Shown here: positions 258-16,683 of the stretch, in pieces | How positions within the stretch are numbered: the first letter of the stretch is position 1 | Layout: each line of letters opens with the position of its first letter | IMG/VR virus record: IMGVR_UViG_3300043429_001390 | Coordinates: 1-58,677 of that record | Direction: 5' to 3' (one strand) | Length of the DNA stretch: 58,677 nucleotides | Origin: a virus | Lineage: Duplodnaviria; Caudoviricetes | The notes under the pieces: model-generated | What the model saw: the letters and a program-made list of their open reading frames with translations, nothing else | Told to the model about the DNA's origin: nothing | Databases searched by the model: none | Made by a program: the position numbers and the translations under genes

Positions 258-3200
258 TCACTCCTCGTCTATGAGCTGCTCTACGAAGCGACGGGTGTCG
301 CGGTTGAACTGGATGCCGCCCAGCGTGTTGCGCTCGCGCTGGCGCTGCGACTGCTCCGACCGGATCAGGGACGACAGGGGCTGGCGCCGGTAGCCTGCTT
401 CCTCGCGGGCGTCCTGCAGCTTCGCCCACCGCTCCCGAGCCTCCGCCCGGGCGTCCGGGTCGTCCTTGGCGCGCAGGTAGGCGTTGCGGATCTTCTCGGC
501 CCTGTCCTGGAACTTGTTGTCCGCCTCGCGCTTGACCCGGTCCCGGAACTGGCGCACCGCCAGCTCGGTGGGCTGGAAGCCGATGGCCTGCCAGAAGGTC
601 TCCATGCCGGAGATCTCCTCCGGGGTGATCAGCACGTCGCCGTTGCGCCGGGTCACGCCCTCGGTGGCCTGCCGGTACGACTTCATGGCGTTGGACACGC
701 CGGTGGGCACGAGCTGCTCCAGGCCGCGGTAGTACTGCCCGTCGCGCATCAGAGCCAGACCGTCGGCTGCGCGCAACCCCAGAGAGCCAGCCGGGCCGCC
801 GAAGATGGCCGCCATGGCCGACTCCACACCGGTGCGGCTGGACAGGTCCAGATCGTTGAACGGCAGCAGCGACAGCACGTTGCCCATGCCGAGCTTGTTG
901 GACAGGTCCACGCCGAGCGCCGCAGGAGCTCCACGGGTTATCAGGGTCGCCACCTGCCCGTTGCCCAGCAGCTCGCGCAGCTCTTCCTCCAGGTTGAACG
1001 GCTCGTCGTCCCCGCCGTCCTTGAGCATGCCCAGCATCCAGGAGATGGCGGCGAAGCCCGGCAGGCCGATGGCGCCCGCCATGACAGCGGTGTGCCCCAG
1101 CAGGAACCCGAGCGCCTTGCGTGCAGCGGCTTGGTCATCGCCGGTGAAGCTGTTCTTCACGAGCTTGGCCAGCAGCGTGAGCTGGATGAGCTGGAACTTG
1201 CGGAACTGCAAGGCCACCTTGCCCGTGGCGGTGTTGAACACCCGCGGCGCGTTGCCCCGGGTGTAGTCGCCGTGGGTCTGGCTGATGATGTCGTCGGCGT
1301 ACTGCAGTGCCTCAGCGGCGTTGCCGGTCCGGGCGAGCTCCATCCGGTAGGCCGCGATGGCGGTGGACAGCCGGTTGACGGCTTCGAGCTTCTGGGCGGC
1401 GTTGCGCAGCCCGCGATCGACCTTGTTCCAGCGGTCCTTGACCGGGCCCTCGCCTTCGAGGCGGAACTCTCCCAGGTCGGTGTCCATGCCGATGTCGATG
1501 CGCCCGCGGTCCACCAGCTTGGAGATGGCGGCCCGGACATCCTGCGGCGCGGCGGCGTAGTTGAACTGCTCGCCCAGCTTGGCCGTACGGAACATAGGGG
1601 CCAAGTCCGTGTAGGCCTTGACCAGCGCAGTGCCCACCTTGAGGTAGTTGAACTTGCCCGCCATGACCGGCAGCGACATCATGAACGGCTGGGTCAGGTT
1701 CTGCAGGTAGTACGCCGGGCTCGTGGCCAGATACCAGACCGAGGTCAGCCGGGCGAGCTTGGAGGCGATGGGCGACGGGTCGTAGTCCATGGACTGCGTG
1801 TGCCGCTTCATCAGCTCATTGAACACCCCTGACTTGGTGTTCTGCGCCTCGGCGTCACCCGACTTCACCTCGCGGCGCATCGCGTTGAAGGTGTCCAGCG
1901 TCTGGTTGTTGTACTTGGCCCCGGCGATGAACTGCGCGTCCGCCCGCCCTTGGGAGGTGAAGGAGCGCAGCATGTCGATCTCGCCGGCCACGCCGCGGCG
2001 GCGCATCTCGGACTTGCGGGCCGAGCTCTCGGCCAGGGACGACAGGTACAGCTCGCCCACCACCCGGCGCGCGGCGCGCAGGGCGTTCTTCTCGCCCGGC
2101 TGGGCGTCTGCCAGCTCCGCATCGAGCTCCGCGCGCAGCTTGTTGAAGGCCGAGAGCATGCCGCCGAACATCGTGTGCTGGACGGCCTCCTTCTGGCGGA
2201 ACACCACCTCTGCGAAGGCGCCCTGCTTCTGAAGCTGCTCGACCAGCTCGCGCGCGTCGGCGGCCGACTCTGCGAACGAGACGTGGTAGTCATCGCCCGA
2301 GTTCTCCAGCTTGGCCCGGGACTTCTCGTCGGCGTCCAGGTAGGCCTGGGACTTGGCGATGACCACGTAGTCGCCGAAGCGCTTCAGCGGCGCGTAGGGG
2401 CGGAACTCCTGCAGCTCGAAGAGCGAGTTGAACCGCTTGAGCTGGTCGGCCTTGTCCGCATCCAGGCGCGCAGCCTTCTTGGTGTCCCCGAGCTTGCGGG
2501 CGGCCGCGATCAGTGCGTCGTACTCGGAATCGGTGGCCTCGATGACGGTCTGCTTCTTGAGCGACAGCACCTCGTCGCCATGCTTGAAGACGGCCTCCAC
2601 CAGAGCCTTGGACTCCTTGGACAGCGCATCGAAGCGCTGCTTCATCTCAGGGTCGACCTTGACGTTGGCGCTCGTGCCCTTGCGCCAGTCGGGCTTGAAG
2701 CCCCACTTGCCCTCGCGCGTGGCGTCGTAGAGGAACTGGTTGGCCGACTTCGGGCCGGTGCCGCGCTCGGCCTGGGGCACCTTGTTGTACAGGTCCGCCA
2801 CGCGCTCGACTTCGCGCTCCAGCTTGCCTGTGAGCGCCGCACGCTCCTGGTACACGCGACGCAGGTTGCCCGCAGCCTCCACCCCCAACGAGATGGCGCG
2901 GTTGATGACGTCCTCGGTGAACGTCAGCGTGTTCAGCGCCGCGTTGCCGACGTCGCGCAGCGTGTTGGTGACGACACCGACGGGCTTCTGGAGCTCTGTC
3001 GGCAGGCGCTCGGTGGGGTTCTTGCCGAAGCGCATGCGCTGCTTGTCCGCAGCCACCTGGGCGCCCACGCGGAAGATGTTCTTGTCGTTGAAGATGACGA
3101 GGTTGCTGGTCCGTACTTGCGACTTGGCGCTCTCAAGGGCCGCTTCAGCGTCTGCAACGGCTTTTTGGCCGTCAACGACCTGCTTCTCGTGGTAGCGAAC

Positions 3201-6200
3201 AGCCGCGCCGAGTTTGTTCTTCAGGCCCACCACAGATGTGGCTCTCGTCTTCTCCGCGCTCTTGGCGATGTTGTCGCGAATGAAAGCCGGAGCGCTGTCA
3301 ATCAGGTCTTGAAGCTCTTTCTGACTGCGTTCAAGCGCCTCTTGCGGGTTGGTGTCGGCAAACGCCCGCGCAGCTTTTGCCTTTTCCAGGGCCGCGCGGC
3401 TGGCCTCAAGGCCGTCTCTTGCGGCGTCAAGGCGGTCCTGCGCGCCTTTCACTGAATCGCTGCGACTGCGAGCGTCCAGGAACCTGATGCCCTTGATGCC
3501 GATGGAGTCGAGCCACTCAGACGCAGCCTTGTCGGAGCCGAACTTGTTCTCAAACCAGTTGTACAGGTTCTCGCCATCTATGCGCGGGTCGTCCCACGCA
3601 TCATCGAAGTCCTCCGCGTATTTAGAGTTCTCGATGGCCTGACGCACTTTGGCGCTTTGCTTGCTCAGTGGCTTGTCCCAGTCCAGCAGCTCGTCGTCGG
3701 CGACGGCGGTGTCCACGCGCATGAGCGAACCTTCTGGGTTAGGGCCCGCCCGCATCTCAACTTCGCGCCCTCCGGTGATGGCCAGCAGTCGGTCCCAACG
3801 CGACTTGTTGCTCTTGCTGGCAAACTTAGTCTTGCCGTCGAACAGCAGCTTGTTGTACAGCTCGCGCAAAACAGACGCCGGCACCGGCTGGCCCGTGTCG
3901 GAGTACACCGGCTGGGCGCTTTGGCTCTTACGATTGACGTCAGCCTCGAAGTACCCCTTGGCGATGCCGAACCGCTGCGCCAGATAGGTGCCCCAGCCGT
4001 ACGCTTGCGCACCCTCACCCGACCCCATGAACTTGTGGTCGAACTTGCGGAACGCCGCCGCCGTGCCATGCCACGTGCCGGTGATCTCCAGGCGGGCTGC
4101 ACCGAACGCGAGGTTGACGATGTCCTGTGCGGTCAGGCTCTCGGGCTTCAGGCCCAGCCGGCGCACCGCGACCTTGAACGCAGCCCACAGGGTGCGGAAC
4201 CACTCCCGCAGTCCAGCAGACCCGCGCATCGTCTCCGCCGTGGGGTCGATGCCTCGCTGCACAGCCTCTTCGAGGAAGTAGGCCAGGATCTCGGCCCGGC
4301 GGTCTTCCTTGGGCGTGTTTGCGTCCATCGTGCGCTCGACGGCAGCCAGGGCGACTTCGCTCTCGGTGGACCCGTTGTCCTGCTTGGCCCAGGAGATGAT
4401 CTGGTCGACGAGCTTGTCGTACACCGCCTTCGGCAGCAGGTTCTCCAGCCCCAGGTGGCCGCCCACCTCGTGCATGAACTTGGCCCGGCCACGCCCCTTG
4501 GCGATGCGGTCCGCCACGAGATACGCCACCCCGTCAGAGGCCACACCATAGGCGCCTTCGAGGGCCATCTTGGCGCCCAGTACCTTCTTCGTGCGGTCCG
4601 AGGAGGTCAGCAGGTCGCCGATGGTGTCCACGATCACGAGCTTGCGCCCCAGCACATCGGCGCGGATGAAGGCCTTGATGTCGTCAATCAGCTCGGCGGC
4701 GGTGTAGCCGTTCTTGACGGCGCCGGCACCCTTGGTCTTGCCGAACTGCTGCCCGCCCCCCTTCATGGCCTGGACCATGCGGTTCCAGTCGCGCGGGGCG
4801 ATGTCCAGCACGGCGGCGTACTGGAAGGGTGCTTCGGGGCGCAGGGCCCCGGACTCCACCGCGGCGCGGGCGGCTTCGAGCGCGTCCTCCATCGAGACGA
4901 ACTTGCCGGTGGTGGCCAGCATGACGTCGCCCGGCTGCTCCTTGTCACGGGACTTGGCGCGCAGGTCGCGCTCGCGCTGGGAGGTCGAGTTCTGCGAGGT
5001 GCGGGAGTCTGGACCGGATGATGACGATGTCCATACCGGCCACGGCATAGAACGCTGCATCAGCGACACGACGTCCTGGCGGGTCCAGTTGTTCTCGCCG
5101 TAGCCCACGAACTCCTTGCGAGTGGTCTCAGGCAGGTCCGCCCACTTGGGTGCGCCAGGGATGGTGTTGGCGGCTTGGTCCCACGCCCGGCCAGCCTGCT
5201 CGGTCGGAGTCAGGACCTTGTCCACGGGTGCTGCCGGCGCGGGCGCTGCAGCCTCTGCCTTCTTGACGCGGCGAACCTTGGGAGCCTTGGGAGGCTCGGC
5301 ACCCTTGGCCTTGCGCACCGCTCCCCGCTGAAGGACGCCCTCGGCGCGCTCGATCTCGGCCTCCGCCTTGGCTTGGAGCTCCGCAGCCTCCTGCTCCAGT
5401 TGCGCGACGGGCACCATCTTGTTGTTGACTGAGACCTCGGTCTTGCCGGCGGCGCGGGCCTGGGCGATCTGCTCGGCGCGCTTGGCGGCCTTGTCCTGCA
5501 AGTCCATCGCCTTCTGCGTGAACTTGGCTGCGACCTCGCCGGGGGTCAGGTACTTGGCTTCGATCTGGGAGATCGCAACGTCGGCCTCCTCGACCTTGTC
5601 GTTCTTGCCGGCTTCTTCCGCAGCGGCGCGCTGCTGGTACAGGGAGTCCAGCTTGTCCTGATCGGCCTGTGAAACGTCCTCGCGCCCGGCCAGCTCACCG
5701 GAGTCGCGCCAGTTGGAGACTGAGCCGCCCAGTGACGCACTGGTGGAGAAGCCCGCCTCGCGCAGGCTGGGGTCGCGCCCGCCCATCTCCGGGGCGGTGT
5801 CAGCGCCGAAGGCGGACTCCGTGGCTTCCAGATCAACCTCGGTGCGCCCGCTCGTGGGGGCGTCAACCTCGGTCTGCGTCTGCGCAGGCGCGAGTCGAGC
5901 AGCCAGCCTCGCCACGTAGTCATCGGTCCAGCCGAACTTCTTCTGGGCGTTCTTGATGCGGGTCGCCCGGGTCTTGGCCCCGAGCTCGCCCTCGCCCGTC
6001 ACCTTCTGCACGGTCTGCCGCGACAGCCCGTACTTGTTGGCGATGGCCTCCTCGGTCATGTTCTCCACGTAGCGGTCGTAGAGCATGGCCGCATCGCGCT
6101 CGCCGAAGATCTGGTTGAGTGTGGTCAGCGTGTCGTCATCGCTCTCGTTGGTGTCGCCCTGCTCGGCGACGATGTCCTCGGCGATCTTGAAGAGGTTGAC

Positions 6201-8084
6201 TCGGCGGCCCTGCGCTTTGGCGGCGCGGGCCTCTGCCCAGACCTGACGCAGCGACGGTGTGAGTGCTGCGAGCGCCGGAGCTCCGTCGGGCTTGGAGTCT
6301 TCCCAGTCGCTCTCGTCCGTGGCCTCGGCAGCCTCGGCTTGCTCAGCAACGGGTTCGGGGGCAACGAAGGCCTGCGACTGTGCCAGGGCGGCCGGACTCA
6401 CCAGCCTGCGCTTGCGCTGGACTACAGGCTCGGTTGGCGCAGCGGGAGCTGCGGCATCTTGTGCGGGGGCGGCTGCCACGGCAGCTTCTGCCGGCGGCGC
6501 TGCTTGGACGGCTTGACTGGCTTGGACATCGGCGGGGACCTCCGTGGCCGTTGGGGGAGTTGCCGGCGCGGGCTCGACCACGGGAGCCACGACAGGCACA
6601 GGAGCCGCCACAGGGGCAGGCGCAGCGACGGGAGCAGCCACCGGAGCCTTCTTGGACTCGATGATGGCCGCGGCCAGGAGCTTCTTGGCCTGCGCGTTCT
6701 TGCGCTCGGACATGGCGGTGACCACCGGGGTCAGCGACTCCAGGGGGAGCCCGGACGCCTTGATCTCGGAGAGCAGCTCCAGTGCCTTGCCGTTGGGCAC
6801 GACGCCCATGTCGATGAGTTCCTGCTCCTCCGGCGTATAGACCTTGGAGGCGGGCGCGGGCGGCGGAGCCGGCGCAGCGGTCGGCGTAGTGGGCAGCCCT
6901 TGGGAGAGCATCGACGCCTCGTAGGCCGACAGCTCGCGCTCGGTGCCATCCGGCCCTGCGACACGGACACCCGACGGGGCGTCGAACGCTGCGGTGATGT
7001 CGGCCTCGCGGGCCTCGCGCTGCTTGTCGTCGAGCGGCGCGCCCACGCCAGCCTGTTGCTCGACCCAGTTCTTGAGCGGAACGCCCGGGTTGTCGCGGAT
7101 GAGCCCGAGGATGGGCGCGAGCTGCTCCTGACGAGCCTTCTCGGCGTCGGCAGCGGCCTTGTCCCTGCGCAGAATGTCGGCCTCGATGGCGCGGTTGTTG
7201 AGCGCGCCGAACCCACCACCCGTGGCGACCCCGGCCAGCATGCCCATGGCGCCGGCGTTGCCCACACCCTGATCCCAGGGCCTGCCCAGCGCGACGTTCT
7301 GCCAGACCTGCTCCTGCATGGACTGGGGCAGTTCCTCGAACACGCCTTCGGACAGCGCGCTGCCACCGATGTTGCGCAGCATCCCGCGCTTGCCGGTGCC
7401 CATGGCGCCTTGCGCGAGCGCAGTGTCGATGTCGCCCAGCCCCACGCGGTTGGCCAGCCGGCCGCCGGCAAGACTCAGAACGCCAGCGCCGAAGCCCGAT
7501 GCGGCAGCGGCAGCCCCCTGCCACGGGGTGAGGAGTCCGTCCTTGGTCTCTGCGCGGATCTGAGACGCCGCAGAGCCGGCCCCGAGGATGCCTTCGCCCG
7601 CAGCGCCGGCCACCACAGGAGCGACCTTCGGGGCGACTCGCAGCAGTCCGCGGGCGATGCCGGCGCCGCCGATCATCTGAGGCAGCGACTCCCCCGCAGC
7701 AGTCAGGATCGTGCTGGGGTTCTGGAGCGCAGTGCCTACGGTGTCGAGGAACCCGTCGGCCTGCTTGACCTTCTCGTTGGCCGCCTGCTGCGCCGGCGAG
7801 TACCACGAGTCGATGAGCTTCTGAGCCTCTTCGGGGCGGTAGCCCAGCTCTTCGAGCGCCTTGCCGACGCGGCCACCCGTGGGGATGTCCGCCAGACCCG
7901 CGAACGCCTGCGGCAGGCCCACCGCGCCCTTGAGCGCGACGACGCCCACGTCCCCCATCGTGCCGAGGATGGTGCGCTCGGGATCCTTGGGTGGCAGCGG
8001 CGAAACGAAGGTCGGGGTGAACCCCTCGACGGGCGCAGCCGAGCGCCGAGATGTGGCTTCGGTGAAACCCTCGATGATCGGCAT
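258..8084 (-). CDS. Giant internal virion / DNA-ejection polyvalent protein (2608 aa) with zincin-like peptidase, ART-like and PLxRFG regions
   Basis: Long ORF with native codon usage; motifs FMHEVGGHLGLE, WHGT..FDHKFMGSGEGAQAYGWGTY, YAPLKRFGDY; last large gene of the virion module. Confidence 0.8.
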   Translation of the reverse strand: MPIIEGFTEATSRRSAAPVEGFTPTFVSPLPPKDPERTILGTMGDVGVVALKGAVGLPQAFAGLADIPTGGRVGKALEELGYRPEEAQKLIDSWYSPAQQAANEKVKQADGFLDTVGTALQNPSTILTAAGESLPQMIGGAGIARGLLRVAPKVAPVVAGAAGEGILGAGSAASQIRAETKDGLLTPWQGAAAAASGFGAGVLSLAGGRLANRVGLGDIDTALAQGAMGTGKRGMLRNIGGSALSEGVFEELPQSMQEQVWQNVALGRPWDQGVGNAGAMGMLAGVATGGGFGALNNRAIEADILRRDKAAADAEKARQEQLAPILGLIRDNPGVPLKNWVEQQAGVGAPLDDKQREAREADITAAFDAPSGVRVAGPDGTERELSAYEASMLSQGLPTTPTAAPAPPPAPASKVYTPEEQELIDMGVVPNGKALELLSEIKASGLPLESLTPVVTAMSERKNAQAKKLLAAAIIESKKAPVAAPVAAPAPVAAPVPVVAPVVEPAPATPPTATEVPADVQASQAVQAAPPAEAAVAAAPAQDAAAPAAPTEPVVQRKRRLVSPAALAQSQAFVAPEPVAEQAEAAEATDESDWEDSKPDGAPALAALTPSLRQVWAEARAAKAQGRRVNLFKIAEDIVAEQGDTNESDDDTLTTLNQIFGERDAAMLYDRYVENMTEEAIANKYGLSRQTVQKVTGEGELGAKTRATRIKNAQKKFGWTDDYVARLAARLAPAQTQTEVDAPTSGRTEVDLEATESAFGADTAPEMGGRDPSLREAGFSTSASLGGSVSNWRDSGELAGREDVSQADQDKLDSLYQQRAAAEEAGKNDKVEEADVAISQIEAKYLTPGEVAAKFTQKAMDLQDKAAKRAEQIAQARAAGKTEVSVNNKMVPVAQLEQEAAELQAKAEAEIERAEGVLQRGAVRKAKGAEPPKAPKVRRVKKAEAAAPAPAAPVDKVLTPTEQAGRAWDQAANTIPGAPKWADLPETTRKEFVGYGENNWTRQDVVSLMQRSMPWPVWTSSSSGPDSRTSQNSTSQRERDLRAKSRDKEQPGDVMLATTGKFVSMEDALEAARAAVESGALRPEAPFQYAAVLDIAPRDWNRMVQAMKGGGQQFGKTKGAGAVKNGYTAAELIDDIKAFIRADVLGRKLVIVDTIGDLLTSSDRTKKVLGAKMALEGAYGVASDGVAYLVADRIAKGRGRAKFMHEVGGHLGLENLLPKAVYDKLVDQIISWAKQDNGSTESEVALAAVERTMDANTPKEDRRAEILAYFLEEAVQRGIDPTAETMRGSAGLREWFRTLWAAFKVAVRRLGLKPESLTAQDIVNLAFGAARLEITGTWHGTAAAFRKFDHKFMGSGEGAQAYGWGTYLAQRFGIAKGYFEADVNRKSQSAQPVYSDTGQPVPASVLRELYNKLLFDGKTKFASKSNKSRWDRLLAITGGREVEMRAGPNPEGSLMRVDTAVADDELLDWDKPLSKQSAKVRQAIENSKYAEDFDDAWDDPRIDGENLYNWFENKFGSDKAASEWLDSIGIKGIRFLDARSRSDSVKGAQDRLDAARDGLEASRAALEKAKAARAFADTNPQEALERSQKELQDLIDSAPAFIRDNIAKSAEKTRATSVVGLKNKLGAAVRYHEKQVVDGQKAVADAEAALESAKSQVRTSNLVIFNDKNIFRVGAQVAADKQRMRFGKNPTERLPTELQKPVGVVTNTLRDVGNAALNTLTFTEDVINRAISLGVEAAGNLRRVYQERAALTGKLEREVERVADLYNKVPQAERGTGPKSANQFLYDATREGKWGFKPDWRKGTSANVKVDPEMKQRFDALSKESKALVEAVFKHGDEVLSLKKQTVIEATDSEYDALIAAARKLGDTKKAARLDADKADQLKRFNSLFELQEFRPYAPLKRFGDYVVIAKSQAYLDADEKSRAKLENSGDDYHVSFAESAADARELVEQLQKQGAFAEVVFRQKEAVQHTMFGGMLSAFNKLRAELDAELADAQPGEKNALRAARRVVGELYLSSLAESSARKSEMRRRGVAGEIDMLRSFTSQGRADAQFIAGAKYNNQTLDTFNAMRREVKSGDAEAQNTKSGVFNELMKRHTQSMDYDPSPIASKLARLTSVWYLATSPAYYLQNLTQPFMMSLPVMAGKFNYLKVGTALVKAYTDLAPMFRTAKLGEQFNYAAAPQDVRAAISKLVDRGRIDIGMDTDLGEFRLEGEGPVKDRWNKVDRGLRNAAQKLEAVNRLSTAIAAYRMELARTGNAAEALQYADDIISQTHGDYTRGNAPRVFNTATGKVALQFRKFQLIQLTLLAKLVKNSFTGDDQAAARKALGFLLGHTAVMAGAIGLPGFAAISWMLGMLKDGGDDEPFNLEEELRELLGNGQVATLITRGAPAALGVDLSNKLGMGNVLSLLPFNDLDLSSRTGVESAMAAIFGGPAGSLGLRAADGLALMRDGQYYRGLEQLVPTGVSNAMKSYRQATEGVTRRNGDVLITPEEISGMETFWQAIGFQPTELAVRQFRDRVKREADNKFQDRAEKIRNAYLRAKDDPDARAEARERWAKLQDAREEAGYRRQPLSSLIRSEQSQRQRERNTLGGIQFNRDTRRFVEQLIDEE

Positions 8085-8096
8085 GACGAGCCCTCG

Positions 8097-9338
8097 CTAC
8101 TTCTTGCCCGGCTTGGCCGCGGCGGCCTCTTCGAGCGTGCTGTACGGCAGGCCATCGCGGCCGATGAACGCCACCGCCGGAGCTCCGTCCGGGCCCTTGC
8201 CCAGCGCAGCGCGAACGCCGGCCTTGCTTGCCTCCCGCTGCATGCGGGCCCAAGAGGTGTTGTCCACGCCCAAGGGGGCTTCGAGCCCGCCGTTGACCAC
8301 GTTGTAGAGCGGGCGTCCGTCTTCGGCGTGCGCGGTGTGCGTGCCGTCTTCGCCCTTGAGGAACTTGGCGGGTCGCGGACCCTTCTCGCCAGTGACCTTG
8401 GGGAACAGGCCCGAGTAGCCTTCCGGCACCGGGACTTCCCTCACGCCGCTGCCGACGCGCCCGAGGATTCGGCGACCGTCGTCGGACACTCCGATGGGGT
8501 TGAAGATGTCGGCGGACGTGGGCGGACGCTGGAACATGCCCCCGCGCTTCTTGGCCTCGTACTCGTCGCGCTCCAAACCGAGCTTGTCGCCGTAGTACTT
8601 CTGCATGAACTCCCGGTAGGCCTTCTCGTCGGCGATCTTCTGGTCGCCCTGGCGCACACCTTGGAACTGAGCCCAGGCAGACGGATCGAGGAACCGCTGC
8701 GCATGCGTGAGCGCGGCCTCCACGTTCTCCCGTGTGACGGGGACCGGGGGTTCCACCCACTTGCCGTCAGGCGTGGCGAGGCCGAACCGACCGTCCTGAG
8801 AGACGACCAGCTTGCGCCCGTCGGGGTAGCTCTCGTAGCCGGTGGAGAGCTCGCGCAGAGCGCCACCAAGGTCGCCCCGAGAGTAGCGAAGCCCCGCTCG
8901 CTGCCAGCCCTCCATCGCCGCGGCGCGGCGTTGAGCGGCTTCGGCCGCCGTGATCTGAAAGCCGGTGAGCCTGCGGGTGTTGGCGCGGTCCGTGTCGGCT
9001 TCGTTGAGCGCGATCATCTGCTCAGCCTCGGCCGGCCGCCCGAAACGACGGTAGACGTTGGCCGTGTCACGCCGCACATCGGCGGCCGAACGCGTCACGG
9101 GCTGGGAGTAGGCCACACCCTCACGGGTGGGGTCGTCCACGGGGGCGTTGGACGTGCCCTCGGGCTGGATGCCGCGCAGCGCAGTCTGGAACTCGTCGTC
9201 CTGCTGCTGCTGCTTCAGCATCCGCTCACGCTGGGCTGCCTGGAACTTGCGGTCCTCGTCCTGCTGCGCCCAATCGCGGCTACGTTCATAGCCGCGGACG
9301 AACCCGTCAACCAGTCCAGCGAACGCGCCAGCGGCCAT
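8097..9338 (-). CDS. Internal virion (ejection) protein, 413 aa
   Basis: N-terminal GAFAGLVDGFVRGY followed by Q/R-rich helical region; position between two other internal virion genes; RBS GAGGAG. Confidence 0.6.
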   Translation of the reverse strand: MAAGAFAGLVDGFVRGYERSRDWAQQDEDRKFQAAQRERMLKQQQQDDEFQTALRGIQPEGTSNAPVDDPTREGVAYSQPVTRSAADVRRDTANVYRRFGRPAEAEQMIALNEADTDRANTRRLTGFQITAAEAAQRRAAAMEGWQRAGLRYSRGDLGGALRELSTGYESYPDGRKLVVSQDGRFGLATPDGKWVEPPVPVTRENVEAALTHAQRFLDPSAWAQFQGVRQGDQKIADEKAYREFMQKYYGDKLGLERDEYEAKKRGGMFQRPPTSADIFNPIGVSDDGRRILGRVGSGVREVPVPEGYSGLFPKVTGEKGPRPAKFLKGEDGTHTAHAEDGRPLYNVVNGGLEAPLGVDNTSWARMQREASKAGVRAALGKGPDGAPAVAFIGRDGLPYSTLEEAAAAKPGKK

Positions 9339-9348
9339 GATCTACTCC

Positions 9349-9639
9349 TCAGAGGTCCAGTTCGAGCTGCTCGGGGATGACATCCACCTCGGCAGCCTCA
9401 GCCTTGCGACGCCCGCGCTTGGGCGCAGGAGCTTCCGGGGGTTCAGCGGGTTCCGCGGGTTCGGCAGGCGCCTCGAACGACAGCTCGTTGCTGATCTTCA
9501 GGCCCAGCTCGTTGAGAAACGGCATGCCGTCACTGCCCACCGCGGTGAGGTACTGCTTCTTGCCGTCGACCACGGCGATGAGCCGGCCGCCCACGATCTC
9601 GCCGCCGACCTTCTCTGCCAACACGTTGATGTCCATCAT
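9349..9639 (-). CDS. Hypothetical protein, 96 aa, Pro/Glu-rich tail
   Basis: ORF with ATGA overlap to the upstream gene. Confidence 0.65.
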   Translation of the reverse strand: MMDINVLAEKVGGEIVGGRLIAVVDGKKQYLTAVGSDGMPFLNELGLKISNELSFEAPAEPAEPAEPPEAPAPKRGRRKAEAAEVDVIPEQLELDL

Positions 9640-10832
9640 GCCCTTCCAATTCCTAACTGCTTCTCGAACTCCAGCCCGGCCTGACGCATCTTCTCCAACT
9701 TGTCGATGCCGAACTTCTTCACGGTGCCCACCGGCATGACGAACTCACCGTCCGACAGCAGCGCGGGCACACGATCATCCTTGGGGCCTCCGGGGCCCGA
9801 GACCTTGCCCCCGCTCTGAGTCGTGGACCCGGGGCGCATCTTGGGCGGGCGGGCGACCGGGCCGCCGGACTTGTAGCCCATGACGGAGTTGACCTGCATC
9901 TCGGCAATCGAGCGCGGGTCGTAGGCGTCCTCCATGACTTCGCCGCCGTCGGCGTACTTCTGGATGAGGCCGCCGTTGGCCTTCCCTCCCGGCGGGCCGA
10001 ACAGCTTCCCACCGACGGCGGCGCCCATGGGGCCGCCAACAGCCATACCGGCCAGCGAGCCGACGGCGCTCATTGCGCCGCCGATAGCCTGCTGCTGCGC
10101 CTGATAGCCCTGCATGTTGTAGTTCGACAGCCCCATTGCGAGGTTGCCGGCGTTGCCGTACATGCTGCCGGACATGCCGTAGCCGCCGCGCATGAAGTCG
10201 TTGCCCTGGCCCATGATGCCCATGCCCTGGGCGGAGTTCCCGCCGGCCGCTCCGCCGGCCGCGTTGGCGCCCTGCATGAAGTTGCCGGTGTCCATGACCA
10301 GCCCTCGGCCCATGCCGGCGACGGAGGCCTTGCGGGCGAAGTTCTCGCCTTCGGCTGCGGCGCGGATGTTGGTGCCAAGGCCCGCAGCGCCCAGGGCGTC
10401 CGCGTTCTTGTTGGCCGCCATCGCGTAGGCCATGGCCGTGCCATTGCCCATGTTGTTGCGGTTGGCCTCGCGCATCATCTGCTGGTTGCGCAGCGAGCTC
10501 TGCTGACTGAAGTCGGCCAGCCCGCGGTTCACGCGGCCCTCGATGTCGATGCCACGCTTGGCCTCGGAGACCAGATCGTCTTCCAGCGGCGCGTAGAGGT
10601 CCTTGTAGCGCCCGAACTGGTAGTCGGCGTACTCGTCCTGCTTGCGCATCGAGCCGAGGTAGGCGTCCTGGAGCTGCTCACGCAGCGCCGCGTCGCGCTG
10701 CATGGCGGGCAGGTAGTCCCGCTCGTAGACCTGCTTGGACCAGTCGAACTGCTGCTTGGCCAGCTCGGACTGCTTGTCGATGGCTTCCCCGACACGCGGG
10801 TCCGGCGGCGGAGGACTTCCTGACCATCCCAT
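9636..10832 (-). CDS. Internal virion (pilot/ejection) protein, 398 aa, starts MGWSGSPPPPDP
   Basis: Gly/Ala/Met-rich body; C-terminal GPGGPKDDRVPALLSDGEFV motif typical of phage ejection/tape-measure-type proteins; GGAG upstream of ATG 10832. Confidence 0.7.
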   Translation of the reverse strand: MGWSGSPPPPDPRVGEAIDKQSELAKQQFDWSKQVYERDYLPAMQRDAALREQLQDAYLGSMRKQDEYADYQFGRYKDLYAPLEDDLVSEAKRGIDIEGRVNRGLADFSQQSSLRNQQMMREANRNNMGNGTAMAYAMAANKNADALGAAGLGTNIRAAAEGENFARKASVAGMGRGLVMDTGNFMQGANAAGGAAGGNSAQGMGIMGQGNDFMRGGYGMSGSMYGNAGNLAMGLSNYNMQGYQAQQQAIGGAMSAVGSLAGMAVGGPMGAAVGGKLFGPPGGKANGGLIQKYADGGEVMEDAYDPRSIAEMQVNSVMGYKSGGPVARPPKMRPGSTTQSGGKVSGPGGPKDDRVPALLSDGEFVMPVGTVKKFGIDKLEKMRQAGLEFEKQLGIGRA

Positions 10833-10834
10833 GG

Positions 10835-11281
10835 CTACTTCTCCAGGTACTCTTCCAAGGTGTCGTTCTGCACCAGGAGCTTGACCTCCGGTGCGACCTC
10901 GATGCCCCACTGCATGCCGCCGATGAGGCGCGCCATGTGGATGAACAGGTCCCCGATGCCGTGCCGGATCACGTTGGCGATCTCAAGGCTCTTCCTGTCG
11001 CCTGCGGCCTCGAAGCGGTTGGCCGTCAGCCAGTTCACTACGCCGAGCTCCAGCACCGGGAGCAGCTCCTCGATGTGCTGGCGATAGAACCTGTTGCGCG
11101 GCATGGCACACGTGGCGAAGAGGAAAGCCTTGTTCAGGTCCTCCGCCTTGACTTCGCTGTCACGGTCGATCAGGTCGTCCCACACGTCCGCGATGTGGAT
11201 GACCATCAGTGCCAAGTTCACCGCATCCTCGTTGCCTTGGAAAAAGCGGCGGAACTTGTCGACAGTGACCGAGTCTCGCAT
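10835..11281 (-). CDS. Small helical protein with DDxxD motif (isoprenoid synthase / prenyltransferase-like), 148 aa
   Basis: HIADVWDDLIDRD on a predicted helix; ATG at 11281 (alternative 11290 overlaps the -10 box). Confidence 0.55.
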   Translation of the reverse strand: MRDSVTVDKFRRFFQGNEDAVNLALMVIHIADVWDDLIDRDSEVKAEDLNKAFLFATCAMPRNRFYRQHIEELLPVLELGVVNWLTANRFEAAGDRKSLEIANVIRHGIGDLFIHMARLIGGMQWGIEVAPEVKLLVQNDTLEEYLEK

Positions 11282-11288
11282 GGCGGGC

Positions 11289-11316
11289 ATTGTACGTTAG
11301 CAGGTGCTCACTGCAA
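11289..11316 (-). promoter_or_regulatory. Putative sigma70 promoter TTGCAG-N16-TACAAT, probably giving a leaderless mRNA; TGCTAAC motif in the spacer
   Basis: Minus strand TTGCAGTGAGCACCTGCTAACGTACAAT, 7 nt before ATG 11281. Confidence 0.5.
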
Positions 11317-11320
11317 CTAC

Positions 11321-12046
11321 TCAGTTTGTGCGGATCAGGCGGATGAAGGCGGCCCCCAGGTCCAGGTGCCACCACTTCGTGCGGAAGTCGGCCCGGCCTG
11401 GATGGTCGTGGTGCGTCTTGTGCATCCACTCACCACCTGTAGGCAGCACGTACTCGAGCCACGCAAGATTGCGAGGTTCCCCTCCCCTGTGACTCGTGAC
11501 CTGATGGATAGCCCCCACCAGATGTGCACTGCCAAGCGGCACGATGTACAGGAACAGGAATGCGGTCGGCGAGATGGCCAGCGCCAACGCTACGAACCCA
11601 AGCCACAAGGTGAGCCCATGCCGATGTACGAAATCCAGAGTCGGGTCGCCCACCAGACGCTTCAGGCGCCCTTTGACCATCGGTACATCACGGAACTGCT
11701 TGTCGATCACGTACCGCCAGGTGGCGTAGTGCGGGTCGAGGGGCGTATCGGAATGCACATGGTGCGTCGTGTGTGCCGCTGCCCATGCGTGAGGCGAGCC
11801 GTAGAGCATCAAGACGCTCCACCCAGCCATGAATCGATGCCAGAACGGCGTCGTCTTGAAGGAGCCGTGCGAGAAATAGCGATGCAGGCCTGCGGACACC
11901 ATGATGGTGTTGAAGGCATGCAGGAAGGGCCACGGCAGAAGCCACGCCCAGTGCGCCTTTCCTGTCGCCACCAGCCAGATAGCCAGCACGATACCGAGAT
12001 TGCCGCCGATGTGGCCGACGGTCACCATCCACTTAGACTGCTTCAT
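11321..12046 (-). CDS. Membrane-bound fatty acid desaturase (delta-9 / acyl-lipid desaturase family), 241 aa
   Basis: Three His boxes AGLHRYFSH, HTTHHVHSD..DPH, GEWMHKTHH; hydrophobic segments; C-terminal WWHLDLG; GGAGG RBS before ATG 12046. Confidence 0.9.
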   Translation of the reverse strand: MKQSKWMVTVGHIGGNLGIVLAIWLVATGKAHWAWLLPWPFLHAFNTIMVSAGLHRYFSHGSFKTTPFWHRFMAGWSVLMLYGSPHAWAAAHTTHHVHSDTPLDPHYATWRYVIDKQFRDVPMVKGRLKRLVGDPTLDFVHRHGLTLWLGFVALALAISPTAFLFLYIVPLGSAHLVGAIHQVTSHRGGEPRNLAWLEYVLPTGGEWMHKTHHDHPGRADFRTKWWHLDLGAAFIRLIRTN

Positions 12047-12590
12047 TCCTGCCTCCCGCAAACACGAATCCGTAGGTCTGGGCCCAGGACACAAGTCTGG
12101 CGCGCGACACTTCGAACGAATCACCCGGGCCGTAGCGATCGAGCGAGCCTGCGCACACAAGCACCTTCGCACCCGACTCGAGAAACACCTCGCCACCTTC
12201 CGGCAGCTTGATTGGCGTCAGCACCGGGAGCGCGCCTCGATTGGCGTGCCAGTTGAAGCACCAGAACTCGGTCTCCTCGATTGCCTTCAGGGTGACAATT
12301 CCGCTCGGGTGCGGACCTCGGTCGCCCGAGTACATGCCAGGCATGCGATCCAGAAACCGCTCCTCCGTACCGTCGTCGGACTTCTTGCTGATCGTGGCAA
12401 AGCCGCGCACGTACATCGTCAGGTTGGGGGCCGACTCCCGCTGCACGTCTATCGCGGACGTGAGCACGAGAGTCGAGCCTTCCGGCATGACGTGCTGATG
12501 AACTTTCCAGCCGAATGCCTCGTGTTCTCGCACACGAATGGCGGCCGGGTTGGCGTATGCGCCACGCCATTCGCGACGCGACGGGATCAC
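12033..12590 (-). CDS. Hypothetical protein, 185 aa, beta-rich
   Basis: GTGA overlap with upstream gene and overlap with the desaturase start, consistent with co-transcription. Confidence 0.65.
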   Translation of the reverse strand: MIPSRREWRGAYANPAAIRVREHEAFGWKVHQHVMPEGSTLVLTSAIDVQRESAPNLTMYVRGFATISKKSDDGTEERFLDRMPGMYSGDRGPHPSGIVTLKAIEETEFWCFNWHANRGALPVLTPIKLPEGGEVFLESGAKVLVCAGSLDRYGPGDSFEVSRARLVSWAQTYGFVFAGGRNEAV

Positions 12591-12982
12591 GGCCCCACCC
12601 CGTAGACGACCACCGACCCAGGCACCACCGAGTTGTCCTTCGGATAGGCCGCTTTGACGGCCTTGATGCGGCTGTACATCGGCTCGATTTTCGGCAGCAC
12701 CCCGGTGTCCATCGCATGCCAGAGCATGTCGAGTTGCTCGTTCACGGGCGGGTACTGCTCCAGGCGGGCCTTGCGATAGTCCATGTCGATCGGAGGCGGA
12801 GGCTTGCCACCTTTCACGACTTTCTTGAGAACCGGGTCGATCACATCCTGCTCGACATCGGACTCGGCCTCGATGACATGCTCGCCAGGAGCTGCCTGGG
12901 CTTCGACCATGTCGGCTTGGCAGATGCCGCTGCGAAGGATCTCGCCGGTCTCGTTGTAGACGGTGAAGTGCTTCATGCTCAT
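12587..12982 (-). CDS. Tail fibre assembly / chaperone-like protein, 131 aa
   Basis: MSMKHFTVYNETGEILRSG..YRKARLEQYPPVNEQLDMLWHAM..IKAVKAAYPK; ATGA-coupled to the fibre gene. Confidence 0.65.
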   Translation of the reverse strand: MSMKHFTVYNETGEILRSGICQADMVEAQAAPGEHVIEAESDVEQDVIDPVLKKVVKGGKPPPPIDMDYRKARLEQYPPVNEQLDMLWHAMDTGVLPKIEPMYSRIKAVKAAYPKDNSVVPGSVVVYGVGP

Positions 12983-15900
12983 CGCTTCAAGACCACGACG
13001 CCGAGGCGCATCGTGCCCGTGTAGTAGGCCCGCGAGACCGTGATGGTGTGGTTGCCAGCACTGGGGCTGACGATGATCGAGCCGGTCGTGTTGCCGTTGT
13101 CGGTCAGCCCGGTGATGACCGGGCCGTAGGTGAAGGTGCCGCCGCCGTCCTTGCCGCCGCCTCCGGTGTACGTCACCGTCGAGGGGCCGAGGAAGTAGTC
13201 GATCAGGAGTGCGCTGGCGTTGGCTGGAACGTTGACCGTGACAGACACAGATGCCCCTGTCGTCGTGACGACAGAACCGACGGACGCGGCGTTGCCAGTG
13301 ATCGCGTTGGTGTCGATGACGTTCGCGGAGACCGTGCCGCTGAAGACCGCACTCCCGCCGCTCGTGATCGACAACCCCGGCATCGAGACGTTGCCGCTGA
13401 CATCCGCGTAGAAGTACTTGTTGTCGTTGGCGTTGCCAATCAGAAGACCGTTGGGGCCAAGGTAGAAGCCCTTCTTGTTCTGGCCGGCCGGCGGCCACGT
13501 CCAACCAGTGATGTCGCCGCCGGAGATGTCTCCTCGCACCGCGACTTGGTTGAAGTAGGCCGCACCGGCCTTGGTGATTCGCCAGCCGGCAGACCCTGCG
13601 CTGTAGTTCGTGGTCTGGATGTCCGTGCCGAGCTTCGTGATGCCGATGCTGTCGTCGGCGACGTACCCCATCGGGTTCCAGGGGCCTGCGTCGGTAGCGT
13701 TATCAGCGACCTGCTCTACTTGAACCCGGCCCACGAACATGTAGCTATCGCCGTAGCCGGACTTGGTGTCGATCTTGCGCAGATGGACCCTCAAGTAGGC
13801 GGCGGTCGACGGCATCGTGAGCACGCCGACTGTTCGCTTGTAGCCAGTCAAGCTCGTGCCGCCGGACGCCTCCTCGTTGTTCTCGACGTTGCCGATGTAG
13901 GTGTTTCCGACGACGGCGCCGGACGCGTCATGGATGTAGGCGAAGACTGCGACCCTGCAGCGATGTGCCCCCGTGTACGCAGAGATGGCGTATCGCTTGC
14001 CCCCAATGACCGTGCAGGTCCTGCCGGCGATCTCGTAGTAGTTGTTCTGGTTGTTCGTCGTGCCGATCTGGCGGCTCCACAGCACGGAGGTGCCGGGCCC
14101 CGTGTAGGGCGCAAGGTAGTAGCCGCTGAGGTTGACGCCCCACGAGTCTTGGGAGATTCCAACGCCCCCGGCGTACGTCCACCCGTCGAGCCCGTTCGAG
14201 AAGTCCGAGTTGTACTGGAGGTTGACGCCGTTCGCGATGTACGTGTTGTCGACCTGGACGCTACTCGTGCCGATGCCCTGCAGCACGCCGGAGCTGACGG
14301 TGATGTTCTGGTTCAGCGTGTCCTGCGGAGACGGCGTCCACGAGCTGGGCTGCGTGCCCAACTCGACCTTCGGGCAGCAGATGTCGATGACCGACCCACT
14401 GGGCAGAGACCCGGACACGCTCCACGACAGGTACAGCTCACCGACGGGCGTCTGCGCGTTGCTGTTGGGGATGCCCCGGAACACATACCGCTGCCACGAT
14501 CCAGTCAACGCGGGATTTTCGAGCACCGTCGTGCTGTTGAACCCCATGTTGCTGTCGTACCCGTTCATGTACTTGCCGACAGCGCCGCCAGACCCCCTGG
14601 CCCAGTAGCTGATGCAGTAGAACAGCCCTGGCTCCCAGGCCTTCACGGAGTCAGTGCTGTTTCCGGCGACAGCTATGCCCATCGTCGCGGTCGTGCTGGC
14701 GTTGGTAGTAACGCGGTAGTAGTTCTGCCCGAACAGACCGCCCGACTGAACAGAAGTAGTGACCGAGATGCCGAGGTTGTTGTAGACGAACCAGTTCGTC
14801 GGCAGCGTCCCGTTGTGCTTCAGGAAGCCGCTGTTGCCGACGAGGTTCACGCCCCCAGCGCGGACCTGATCATTGGCTACAACAGTGCCGGCCCCGGTGC
14901 CGATGCCCTGAATGGCGCCGCCGCTCACCGTGATGTTCGAGTTCAGCCACCCCGACGCAGCGTTCACGCGGCTGGAGTCGATGTTGTTGTTGACCCCGAA
15001 GAGGATGTTGCCGCTGTTGTCGCGGATCGTCAGGCCGTTGCTGTTGATCTGGGCGGCCGTGAGCTGGCCTCGGATCGAGGCGGCCCCGAGCTCCGCGGTG
15101 CCGTTCTTGTTGATGTGCCAGCCGGAGGTGCCCGCCACGTAGTTCGTGGACTGGATGAAGTTGCCGATCTTGGCGTTGGTGATCTGGCCGTCACCGATGT
15201 TGGCCTCGACAATCGTCCCGGCTGCGATCTTCGCGCTGCCGTCGATGGTCAGGGACTGAATCATCGCGTTGGTGATGGCGCCGGTCTCGACGGCAGCCGT
15301 TCCGACAGAGATGGCGTTGGCCGAGAGCTTGGTGGCCGTGATGGCGCCGTCGACGATCAGCTCGGCGGTGTTCGCCTTGCGCACGTGGATCTTGGTGACG
15401 AACCAGTTGCCCGCGGGAGACGCGACCCCCACAGTGCCGAACGCGATCAGAGCGCGTGCCGGCACGTACGTGGTGCTGTTGTACGTGAACGTGGCAGGGA
15501 TCGTGATCTGGCCAGAGTACCGGGCCCAGCCGGTCGCGTTGCTCGGCGTCAGCGGGATGCTGGGCCAGTAGTAGCCCACGCCGGTCTGGTCGTTGATCTG
15601 GAGGAAGATGCGGGTGGGGCTGTTCGCGGTCGCGTCCGAGGCAGCGTAGAACTCCGCGTAGTAGACCTCTCCGGGCCTGACGTCGAACGTGCCGATCGCG
15701 GCGCAGTCGTTGTTCGCGTTCGTGAGCACCGGGTTGCGCACGACGTACGCGGCCGGCGCACCGGAAGGAACTCCGGCAGCCCCCCTGGCGACGACCGAGG
15801 ACGACCCCGTCAGCACCCAGCCATCGCTCGAACCGCCGCTGAAAGAGGGGTTCTTGATGAGGTTCGTGGTGTCGACGACGGCGAGCTTGCTGGCCGTGAT

Positions 15901-16683
15901 CGCGTTCGCGGCGATCTGGTCGGAGCCGATTGCGCCGGCCTGGATCTTCCCGCTCGTGATCGTGCCGGTTGTGATCTTGTCCGCCGACAGTGTGTTGTCG
16001 ACGATGACGTCGCCGCCGAAGAACGCCGTCAGCACAGTCCACGTTCCGCCGGAACTGCGCACGCGGGTCTGAGTGAAGCTCGACCCAGTGTTGTACAGGG
16101 TGACGACGTCGCCCTGCAGCGGGCTGCCCCCACCCGCGTTGGAGATGGCAGTGGCCGCCTCCGCGTCAGACCATGCCGTGCCGGTGATCGCCCGTGCGGT
16201 GGTGATCGTGCCGCGCGTGCCCGTTGGGCCCGTTGGACCCGTTGCGCCCGTTGCGCCCGTCGCACCCGTTGCACCGGTGGCCCCCTGTCGGGCCTTGGCG
16301 ACGCTGAAGCGCTTCGTCAGGTTGACGCCGCTCTTGCTGGCCGTGATGTCCAGGTAGGACAGGTCCTGCGTCAGGGAGACGACGCGCACGTAGCCCGTCG
16401 TCCCCGTGATCAGCCCGTTCGTGGCGCCCGTGCCAGTCCGATCCGACGTGTCGTCGCTGTCCCTGTACGCGATACCGCCCCCGGTGGCGGAGACGTAGAA
16501 GGACCACGTCGAGCTGGTGTCGACGCCCGCCTCGAAGACCTTGAGCTGGGTCTCGGCCCCGGTGAACGACGCCACGTTCCCCGCGCTGTCCGCGGCGATG
16601 ACGTAGCTGTCGTTCGTGAGCAGGCTGCCAACACCGTCGTTGACATCGACGATGGTGATCGCACCAGTACTGACGACGGGCAC
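12979..16683 (-). CDS. Tail fibre / receptor-binding protein, 1234 aa, with collagen-like segment and three CBM-like domains
   Basis: Gly-X-Y run (GATGAT..GPTGPT), ITAxKL repeats, IQSTNY..GW.I.K.G motifs, three NLxxNxxF domain starts; AGGAG RBS. Confidence 0.8.
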   Translation of the reverse strand: MPVVSTGAITIVDVNDGVGSLLTNDSYVIAADSAGNVASFTGAETQLKVFEAGVDTSSTWSFYVSATGGGIAYRDSDDTSDRTGTGATNGLITGTTGYVRVVSLTQDLSYLDITASKSGVNLTKRFSVAKARQGATGATGATGATGATGPTGPTGTRGTITTARAITGTAWSDAEAATAISNAGGGSPLQGDVVTLYNTGSSFTQTRVRSSGGTWTVLTAFFGGDVIVDNTLSADKITTGTITSGKIQAGAIGSDQIAANAITASKLAVVDTTNLIKNPSFSGGSSDGWVLTGSSSVVARGAAGVPSGAPAAYVVRNPVLTNANNDCAAIGTFDVRPGEVYYAEFYAASDATANSPTRIFLQINDQTGVGYYWPSIPLTPSNATGWARYSGQITIPATFTYNSTTYVPARALIAFGTVGVASPAGNWFVTKIHVRKANTAELIVDGAITATKLSANAISVGTAAVETGAITNAMIQSLTIDGSAKIAAGTIVEANIGDGQITNAKIGNFIQSTNYVAGTSGWHINKNGTAELGAASIRGQLTAAQINSNGLTIRDNSGNILFGVNNNIDSSRVNAASGWLNSNITVSGGAIQGIGTGAGTVVANDQVRAGGVNLVGNSGFLKHNGTLPTNWFVYNNLGISVTTSVQSGGLFGQNYYRVTTNASTTATMGIAVAGNSTDSVKAWEPGLFYCISYWARGSGGAVGKYMNGYDSNMGFNSTTVLENPALTGSWQRYVFRGIPNSNAQTPVGELYLSWSVSGSLPSGSVIDICCPKVELGTQPSSWTPSPQDTLNQNITVSSGVLQGIGTSSVQVDNTYIANGVNLQYNSDFSNGLDGWTYAGGVGISQDSWGVNLSGYYLAPYTGPGTSVLWSRQIGTTNNQNNYYEIAGRTCTVIGGKRYAISAYTGAHRCRVAVFAYIHDASGAVVGNTYIGNVENNEEASGGTSLTGYKRTVGVLTMPSTAAYLRVHLRKIDTKSGYGDSYMFVGRVQVEQVADNATDAGPWNPMGYVADDSIGITKLGTDIQTTNYSAGSAGWRITKAGAAYFNQVAVRGDISGGDITGWTWPPAGQNKKGFYLGPNGLLIGNANDNKYFYADVSGNVSMPGLSITSGGSAVFSGTVSANVIDTNAITGNAASVGSVVTTTGASVSVTVNVPANASALLIDYFLGPSTVTYTGGGGKDGGGTFTYGPVITGLTDNGNTTGSIIVSPSAGNHTITVSRAYYTGTMRLGVVVLKR
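16208..16286 (-). repeat. 9-bp period repeat encoding collagen-like Gly-X-Y triplets
   Basis: (c/g)cccgttg units encoding GATGATGATGATGATGPTGPTGTRG. Confidence 0.8.

Follow-up and report, generated by a model that had tools for sequence, protein, structure and literature searches.

A half-size isoprenoid-synthase-like protein encoded directly before a phage ejection-type protein: a candidate prenyl-transferring maturation enzyme

We analyzed a stretch of viral DNA, IMG/VR record IMGVR_UViG_3300043429_001390 (the window, by which we mean the whole stretch of ~58.7 kb), and in it a small gene with an Asp-rich DDxxD motif and the gene for an ejection-type virion protein that follows it. Both genes lie on the minus strand. 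The open reading frame (ORF) of the DDxxD gene, at 10835-11290, encodes 151 amino acids (aa) from the ATG at 11290 or 148 aa from a second ATG at 11281. Because homologues mostly begin at the position of Met4 (MRD...), i.e., at ATG 11281, the 148-aa version is probably the real one; residues are numbered here on the 151-aa ORF. The sequence HIADVWDDLIDRD makes up residues 32-44, and the codons of the motif W37-D38-D39-L40-I41-D42-R43-D44 occupy 11159-11182. The gene ends with the stop codon TAG at 10837-10835, which is followed by the two nucleotides (nt) CC and then by the ATG at 10832-10830 (ATG GGA TGG...) that opens MGWSGSPPPPDP, the first residues of a 398-aa protein (9636-10832, start MGWSGSPPPPDPRVGEA). 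A GGAG sequence at 10844-10841 lies 8 nt upstream of this ATG, the junction as a whole spanning 10833-10844. The description in the initial annotation of a 148-aa helical protein with HIADVWDDLIDRD that stops 2 nt before a virion protein starting with MGWSGSPPPPDP could thus be read directly from the sequence.

The same annotation had given the DDxxD gene a predicted promoter of its own, and this was not reproduced: a scan for the sigma-70 consensus returned 0 sites in 9000-13200, where 0.5 were expected. By eye, TTGCAG and TACAAT separated by 16 nt reach a consensus score of 8/12, and the -10 hexamer abuts the ATG at 11290. For the 398-aa gene, a start at GTG 10910 (424 aa, 75-nt overlap with the DDxxD gene) was considered and disfavored, since the MGW start conserved in 8/8 relatives and the upstream GGAG favor ATG 10832.

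The 398-aa product matched phrog_8003, a 'virion structural protein' family (E 4e-24), and in tblastn it matched virion-associated proteins in 46 phage records, mostly of Ralstonia (Gervaise-like) and Burkholderia (Bcep22-like) podoviruses. With the profile of the DDxxD family we fetched 181 loci, all with a DDxxD gene, which contained 137 distinct downstream genes. The next gene started between -41 and +10 nt from the DDxxD stop in 129 of these 137 cases, and 108 of the downstream genes overlapped the DDxxD gene. The DDxxD gene and the gene downstream of it are a conserved, translationally coupled unit, and their pairing is far beyond chance. A profile built from homologous proteins that are linked to a GNAT-type acyltransferase gene in related phages (see below) matched 41 of 129 DDxxD-linked downstream proteins, suggesting that the DDxxD-linked and GNAT-linked proteins belong to one family. 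Co-folding of the family alignment with the alignment of ejection-protein residues 1-90 scored 0.00 and gave no verdict, which is evidence neither way. The C-termini of the ejection proteins vary: those of the window, L201, L202, L003, and L007 share ..GPGGP.DD.VPA.LS.GE.V.P.., and others (L203, L204, and L217 were examined) end in a different module. The homologues in phages Parlo and POI1126 are labelled in GenBank as intramolecular-chaperone or endosialidase-chaperone domain proteins.

The 151-aa protein matched phrog_21390, an unnamed phage family (E 8.7e-25), and found no match in Pfam or NCBIfam, with no Pfam family at E<=1. An exhaustive HMMER search gathered 809 representatives of clusters defined at 50% identity (E<=1e-3), nearly all of them ~150 aa long. 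By a pattern scan the family occurs at 563 or more IMG/VR loci, at 293 metagenome loci, and at 21 loci in representative bacterial genomes. It is abundant in metagenomes and nearly absent from cultured phages: when three of its members were used in tblastn against 50,697 phage records, the only match was Achromobacter phage CF418P1, in which the downstream protein starts with MGC. This distribution suggests that the family has been missed by bench work.

Conservation was assessed over 104 diverse members with a mean column identity of 33%. A23, D38, and D42 were invariant, and W37, D39, L40, D44, N66, F68, P78, W87, R109, G124, and G125 were conserved in at least 90% of the members. Judged from the alignment, this pattern looks like that of a catalytic or metal site. 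Four family members (P0052, P0113, P0122, and P0172; 4 of the 10 long members scanned) are fused to a class-I S-adenosylmethionine-dependent methyltransferase, in both orders. The nearest solved relative of the P0113 methyltransferase is BezA (7fbh, E 2e-7), a geranyl diphosphate (GPP) methyltransferase; its other near relatives are small-molecule C-methyltransferases, among them geranyl diphosphate 2-C-methyltransferase (E 1e-3). The fusions hint, though not specifically, at a role in the chemistry of small molecules or lipids and not at a passive chaperone. For the P0052 fusion, no IMG/VR locus that gives its gene context was found. Other long members (P0135, P0179, and P0047) carry unexplained extensions, and the C-terminal ~110 residues of P0135 matched nothing in Pfam and did not resemble the alignment of the GNAT proteins.

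The AlphaFold2 model built on the family alignment is an all-alpha protein of eight helices (predicted local distance difference test score, pLDDT, 96; predicted template-modelling score 0.89). Helix 2 comprises residues 21-42, and the Asp motif lies at its C-terminal end. A VIA search of the model against 48,161 chains returned class-I isoprenoid enzymes in 47 of the top 50 rows, namely 38 trans-prenyltransferases, eight terpene cyclases, and squalene synthase; the remaining rows were two of UbiA type and one unrelated chain. The best match was the small subunit of Staphylococcus aureus heptaprenyl diphosphate synthase (5h9d_D, Z 9.2, root-mean-square deviation (rmsd) 3.6 over 138 aligned residues), and the alignments spanned 138-150 of the 151 residues at an rmsd of 3.1-4. 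In a second structure search 49 of 50 rows were prenyltransferases, the best being yeast geranylgeranyl diphosphate (GGPP) synthase (2e8v_B, Z 9.9, rmsd 3.5 over 145 residues). Because the match list is nearly pure for one superfamily, a generic helical arrangement is disfavored. The proposal of the initial annotation that the protein has an isoprenoid-synthase-like fold was therefore upheld by both structure searches, and an HD/MazG-like fold, which had been named as the finding that would speak against it, appeared in neither 50-row list, though its absence is not proof.

Other searches were in line with this. The Foldseek rows against the Protein Data Bank (PDB) with a TMq above 0.45 (0.48-0.61) were solely GGPP synthases, octaprenyl diphosphate synthases, and related prenyltransferases. 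In ESM-Atlas, two of the four nearest named clusters were polyprenyl_synt and HexPS-like, with a score of 0.77 that the tool itself treats as a lead only. Foldseek against BFVD returned only four uncharacterized proteins of uncultured phages, and when PDB was searched by sequence, both the protein itself and the 104-member profile gave only chance-level rows (E 0.4 or worse). The 151-aa protein corresponds to roughly half of a synthase, approximately helices B-H of the fold; the aligned ranges were ~30-240 of the 300-aa enzymes.

In related phages the slot before the ejection-type gene holds a different protein. A ~145-aa 'acyl-CoA N-acyltransferase' is annotated directly upstream of the 398-aa homologue in BcepIL02, Parlo, Skulduggery, Gervaise, and POI1126, and in Sinorhizobium phage PBC5 there is an unannotated 150-aa GNAT ORF between gp18 and gp19 (1992-2441 of locus L091; record positions 13556-14005) with 44% identity to BcepIL02 gp65 by alignment. 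The statement that related podoviruses carry a GNAT upstream of their internal virion gene was borne out in 6/6 sampled, and a model confirmed the fold: the slot family, phrog_4470, gave a GNAT structure (pLDDT 93) with Foldseek matches to SpeG, RimI, and others (E 4e-9). In the BcepIL02 record, gp63, gp64, gp66, gp68, and gp69 are annotated as virion-associated, and the slot protein gp65 is not.

A scan of IMG/VR found 301 GNAT loci. The DDxxD and GNAT genes exclude each other, as had been anticipated; a GNAT was found in 0/181 DDxxD loci and a DDxxD gene in 0/80 GNAT loci. In the metagenomic phage L053, the DDxxD gene lies exactly at the place of the GNAT in an otherwise retained Gervaise/BcepIL02 order: a 580-aa protein, a 100-aa protein, the slot, a gp66-like protein (ending ...GAGISAF), and phosphoadenosine phosphosulfate (PAPS) reductase. 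PAPS reductase is present in the virion module of BcepIL02, Gervaise, and L053.

A comparable arrangement is seen in phage P22, where 2 nt separate the end of gene 14 (151 aa, 'head morphogenesis') from the start of gene 7 ('DNA ejection'). By hhalign, P22 gp14 showed a weak relationship to the GNAT family (probability 56%, E 1e-4), and phrog_651 was matched by 1 of 6 members; against the DDxxD family, hhalign gave gp14 a probability of 1%. No similarity was detectable between P22 gp7 and either the family of the window protein or the GNAT-linked profile, so for the downstream gene P22 is only a positional analogue. The record states that host OpdA cleaves 20 residues from the N-terminus of gp7.

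We then compared the N-termini of the downstream proteins. Many of them share an anchor, DP-x-[IV]-G-x-A, which in the window reads ...PPPPDPRVGEA. About 9-10 residues before its DP, a Lys is present in 49/49 distinct anchor-bearing GNAT-linked proteins (MGK.., MGGK.., ..FKKG.., ..CFGKGG..); in hidden Markov model columns 3, 4, and 5 a Lys stands in 26, 42, and 5 of 54 proteins, respectively. Among the DDxxD-linked proteins aligned to the same profile, a Lys in columns 3-4 was found in 0/19; in those of L201 and L202 a Lys occurs later, in column 8. The N-terminal residues of the downstream protein thus change with the type of enzyme. DDxxD-linked proteins start with MGW, MAGW, MCC, MGC, or MSF, or carry ..C[YIC]LDLGG.. 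junctions. The invariant Lys suggests, at the level of sequence, that the GNAT in the gene 14 slot would make a Lys-directed modification.

The initial annotation had also predicted a conserved N-terminal Trp downstream of the DDxxD gene, and this was true of the subclade of the window but not of the family. In 8/8 proteins of that subclade, which are 27-76% identical, G2, W3, P8, P10, D11, and P12 are invariant. MGW occurs in two or more, perhaps five, enzyme lineages, but in only 10 of the 137 distinct downstream N-termini; of the others, 18 are Cys-first, 13 start with MG[FST] or MS., 14 with MP[DENS], 53 have a ~20-residue leader and a Gly run, and 29 are of other kinds. A Trp or Cys at residues 2-5 was found in 36/125 downstream proteins vs 47/490 of the remaining ORFs in these loci (Fisher p 2e-7, overstated owing to the non-independence of relatives).

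On a quick maximum-likelihood tree built from the shared domain, the GNAT-linked proteins fell into one clade (Shimodaira-Hasegawa-like approximate likelihood-ratio support 97) with the L053 protein nested inside it, indicating that the enzyme type has switched at least twice. The L053 downstream protein has lost the Lys and starts with MCC. Its enzyme is sister (support 99) to that of L069, whose downstream protein also starts with MCC and lies elsewhere on the substrate tree. These relationships suggest that the enzyme gene moved as a unit with the opening codons of its substrate gene.

Some GNAT-linked proteins (L121-L200) start at the Lys stretch (MGK.., MGGK..), and others are extended by 40-70 residues, with a hydrophobic helix in the extensions of BcepIL02 and Parlo. 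Leaders are alike across enzyme types, e.g., LLDLGIPELDDRAF in L027 and L257 (DDxxD) vs LGIPDHDEDAF in L130 and L150 (GNAT), and the junction after the leader is Y/F-GGGG in DDxxD loci vs Y-G(G)KGGG in GNAT loci. Mature P22 gp7 (9369-10058 of locus L302) would start with KGGKGG once cleaved by OpdA as annotated. By analogy with gp7, the leader may be a removable propeptide.

The reading that we prefer, tentatively and at somewhat less than an even chance, is that the 151-aa protein is a putative Mg/diphosphate-dependent enzyme that matures the first ejection protein, probably by transferring a prenyl group; it would be a late and probably non-virion protein. The Asp motif would bind Mg2+ together with the diphosphate moiety of a prenyl donor from the host, i.e., dimethylallyl diphosphate (DMAPP), GPP, or farnesyl diphosphate (FPP), and the prenyl group would be moved to a nucleophile close to the start of the ejection protein. 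The acceptor here would be Trp3 of (M)GWSGSPPPPDP, within the proposed acceptor segment M1-P12 = MGWSGSPPPPDP (10797-10832), where GNAT-linked homologues carry the Lys; in relatives it would be Cys2 or Cys3. The prenyl group could then serve as a hydrophobic anchor of the ejected protein in the host envelope, and in GNAT phages the same segment would be acylated on the invariant Lys instead. The host genome has three polyprenyl_synt (PF00348) genes, on contigs other than that of the window, so prenyl diphosphates should be available as donors.

The closest known parallel is ComQ of Bacillus, an enzyme of the isoprenoid-synthase fold that prenylates a Trp of the ComX peptide encoded next to it. 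The pair in the window resembles ComQ-ComX in the class-I fold type, the DDxxD motif, the enzyme gene directly upstream of the presumed substrate gene, and a Trp conserved in the subclade. Unlike ComQ, the protein has 151 aa instead of ~300, lacks membership in polyprenyl_synt by sequence, and has one Asp-rich motif; unlike ComX, a secreted pheromone, the substrate presumed here is a virion protein of 398 aa whose Trp is at position 3, and most relatives have Cys or other N-termini. Small subunits of heteromeric prenyl diphosphate synthases (5h9d_D; Bacillus subtilis 9kp1_A, Z 8.5; HexPS component A) are top structure matches of similar size. Such HepS/HexA-type subunits are non-catalytic, are encoded beside a catalytic large subunit, and are not known to have a DDxxD, whereas the phage protein has an invariant DDxxD, virion genes as neighbors, and no adjacent catalytic large subunit. 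MoeN5 and other single-substrate prenyltransferases of the same fold (5b02_A, 5b00_A, and 6j8w_D) match with Z 8.0-8.4 over 148-149 residues. MoeN5-type enzymes transfer a prenyl group to an acceptor that is not an isoprenoid diphosphate; they are larger than the phage protein (~260 aa) and act on a lipid acceptor instead of a protein. In position and in coupling to the first ejection protein, the pair is like gp65 GNAT/gp66 of the Bcep22-like phages and gene 14/gene 7 of P22, but the DDxxD protein is all-alpha, the slot GNAT is alpha/beta, and the likely acceptor in the GNAT phages is the invariant Lys.

Several results weigh against the 151-aa protein being a catalytic prenyltransferase. It reaches only half the size of the known catalytic members of the fold, and no second conserved Asp-rich or N..S..E motif (DDxxD or NSE/DTE) was present among the invariant or nearly invariant columns of the 104 members; near residue 143 only one acidic position is commonly kept. 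The Z scores of 9-10 are below ~13, the level that the tool gives as safe for helical-bundle matches, and Foldseek against PDB gave no row at E<=1e-3. The structure matches are at the level of the overall fold, and an equivalence of DDxxD with the first Asp-rich motif of the synthases is putative. A global hhalign run of the family against 32 polyprenyl synthases from genomes had a probability of 0.2, which is not significant, and set DDxxD on the second motif of the synthases. Membership in the family of ComQ could not be maintained: Pfam polyprenyl_synt (PF00348), which includes ComQ, is recognized by a profile match and a length of ~260-350 aa, and the 151-aa protein, with one Asp-rich motif, has no Pfam match at E<=1. 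The P0052 fusion methyltransferase is closest to phosphoethanolamine N-methyltransferases. On the substrate side, Trp and Cys are not universal in the downstream N-termini, as the leader MFKLSSLLGFLLGPRLHISMGGGG illustrates, and a Cys lies near the anchor in 10/49 GNAT-linked proteins (Cys-hydrophobic junctions, ICFGK). To account for the Lys covariation it is enough that the GNAT is an enzyme, and the enzyme switches are perhaps only two.

The main competitor of the prenyl-transfer reading is a non-catalytic assembly chaperone of the gene 14 type, whose isoprenoid-type cleft would keep the hydrophobic or aromatic N-terminal segment of the ejection protein soluble and hand it to the procapsid, with the acidic motif serving peptide or metal binding instead of catalysis. 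The position matches that of P22 gene 14, with the same length and the same 2-nt spacing, and translational coupling would suit a stoichiometric partner. The diverse downstream N-termini are almost always hydrophobic, aromatic, or Gly-rich, which would fit recognition of a physical property and not of one residue, and non-catalytic small subunits are among the best structure matches (5h9d_D; the HexPS-like cluster). We nevertheless regard a chaperone as unlikely, though a serious contender, because four acidic residues together with N66 and R109 are 90-100% conserved in a family with so low a mean identity, because non-catalytic small subunits are not known to have a DDxxD, because fusions to methyltransferases of the small-molecule type are hard to explain for a chaperone, and because the slot protein of the sister phages has an enzyme fold.

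A role directed at a host isoprenoid lipid is improbable. Here the protein, sitting in a variable hot-spot of the virion module, would sequester or hydrolyze a polyprenyl diphosphate or pair with a host synthase of long-chain prenyl diphosphates in the manner of HepS/HexA-type small subunits, and its fold and size are indeed like those of the small subunits of heteromeric prenyl synthases. The module also holds other non-structural enzymes (the PAPS reductase mentioned above; a desaturase-like gene in the window), and the lipid- or small-molecule-type methyltransferase fusions would be at home in this setting. The DDxxD gene, however, is fixed upstream of one gene in 129/137 cases, compared with a desaturase in one other locus; the downstream N-terminus follows the enzyme type; and no catalytic large subunit is encoded nearby, the three polyprenyl_synt genes of the host being on other contigs. 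Finally, a structural virion component, i.e., a small internal core or portal-proximal protein with only a common helical arrangement, would fit the place of the gene in a late structural operon between tail fibers and internal proteins, Z scores within the warning range of the tool, and the example of T7 gp13, a small internal virion protein in a comparable position, but it is very improbable given that 47-49 of the 50 best rows come from one enzyme superfamily, unlike a generic helical bundle, that the conservation is active-site-like, and that BcepIL02 gp65 is not annotated as virion-associated, unlike its neighbors.

Returning to prenyl transfer, a broader version is possible, if rather doubtful: in P22/Bcep22-type podoviruses, the slot enzyme would mature the first ejection protein, and two unrelated recruits would fill the slot, either a Lys-acylating GNAT or a mini, single-motif prenyltransferase that lipidates an N-terminal Trp or Cys, the latter in a huge, almost wholly uncultured group. 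This bears on the open problem of how the ejection proteins of short-tailed phages leave the capsid and enter two membranes. It also gives a testable rule, in which the gene before the first ejection protein is GNAT or isoprenoid-synthase-like, never both, and the N-terminus of the ejection protein follows the choice. A catalytic protein would be a minimal, half-size prenyltransferase scaffold for a new kind of virion-protein lipidation, and if the broader proposal is true, the ejection protein would be the first virion protein of a phage found to be prenylated, and no catalytic protein with the class-I isoprenoid fold would be smaller than its enzyme; a non-catalytic protein would mean that the isoprenoid fold has been put to a new use, that of a peptide chaperone. 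Full-text literature searches returned nothing on phage prenyltransferases or lipidated ejection proteins. The words 'acetyltransferase', 'acyl', and 'myristoyl' were not found in a 2022 review of ejection proteins, and passages from PMC10386132, PMC6606913, PMC10461980, PMC8954989, PMC5850374, and PMC9728967 do not discuss the enzyme in the gene 14 slot.

The window has 65% G+C and is a prophage-sized block within contig C9 of a 5.55-Mb genome. Its late operon on the minus strand runs from the tail fibers through a 185-aa, a 242-aa, the 151-aa, the 398-aa, a 96-aa, a 413-aa, and a 2608-aa gene. The last tail-fiber gene (1234 aa, 12979-16683) has Phage_Tail_Tip and CBM_4_9 domains, and the 185-aa gene lies between it and the 242-aa gene (11321-12049). 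The latter encodes a desaturase-like membrane protein in the middle of the virion operon (PF00487, E 5.6e-5, below the cut-off; a partial match to the NCBIfam DesA family) with three His boxes, HRYFSH, HTTHHVH, and HKTHHDH. It is 54.5% identical to its counterpart in the closest relative, L201, where the neighboring DDxxD gene is 82% identical. The desaturase-like gene was considered as a part of the module and rejected, as it was not found in 80 IMG/VR DDxxD loci and, of the loci searched, only L201 has it as well; it looks like a lineage-specific auxiliary gene outside the conserved pair.

Downstream of the pair, the 96-aa gene (9349-9639) overlaps the stop of the 398-aa gene, and its product is 80% identical in L201 and 60% in L202. 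The internal-protein block continues with a 413-aa virion structural protein (8097-9338; phrog_9667, E 2.9e-5) and ends with the ORF of a giant, polyvalent virion protein of 2608 aa (258-8084). At residues 1338-1408 this protein has a weak, sub-threshold match to ART-PolyVal (ADP-ribosyltransferase of polyvalent proteins), and its position is that of the DarB-like giant proteins in Bcep22-like phages, as seen by comparison with BcepIL02 gp70 and Parlo gp81.

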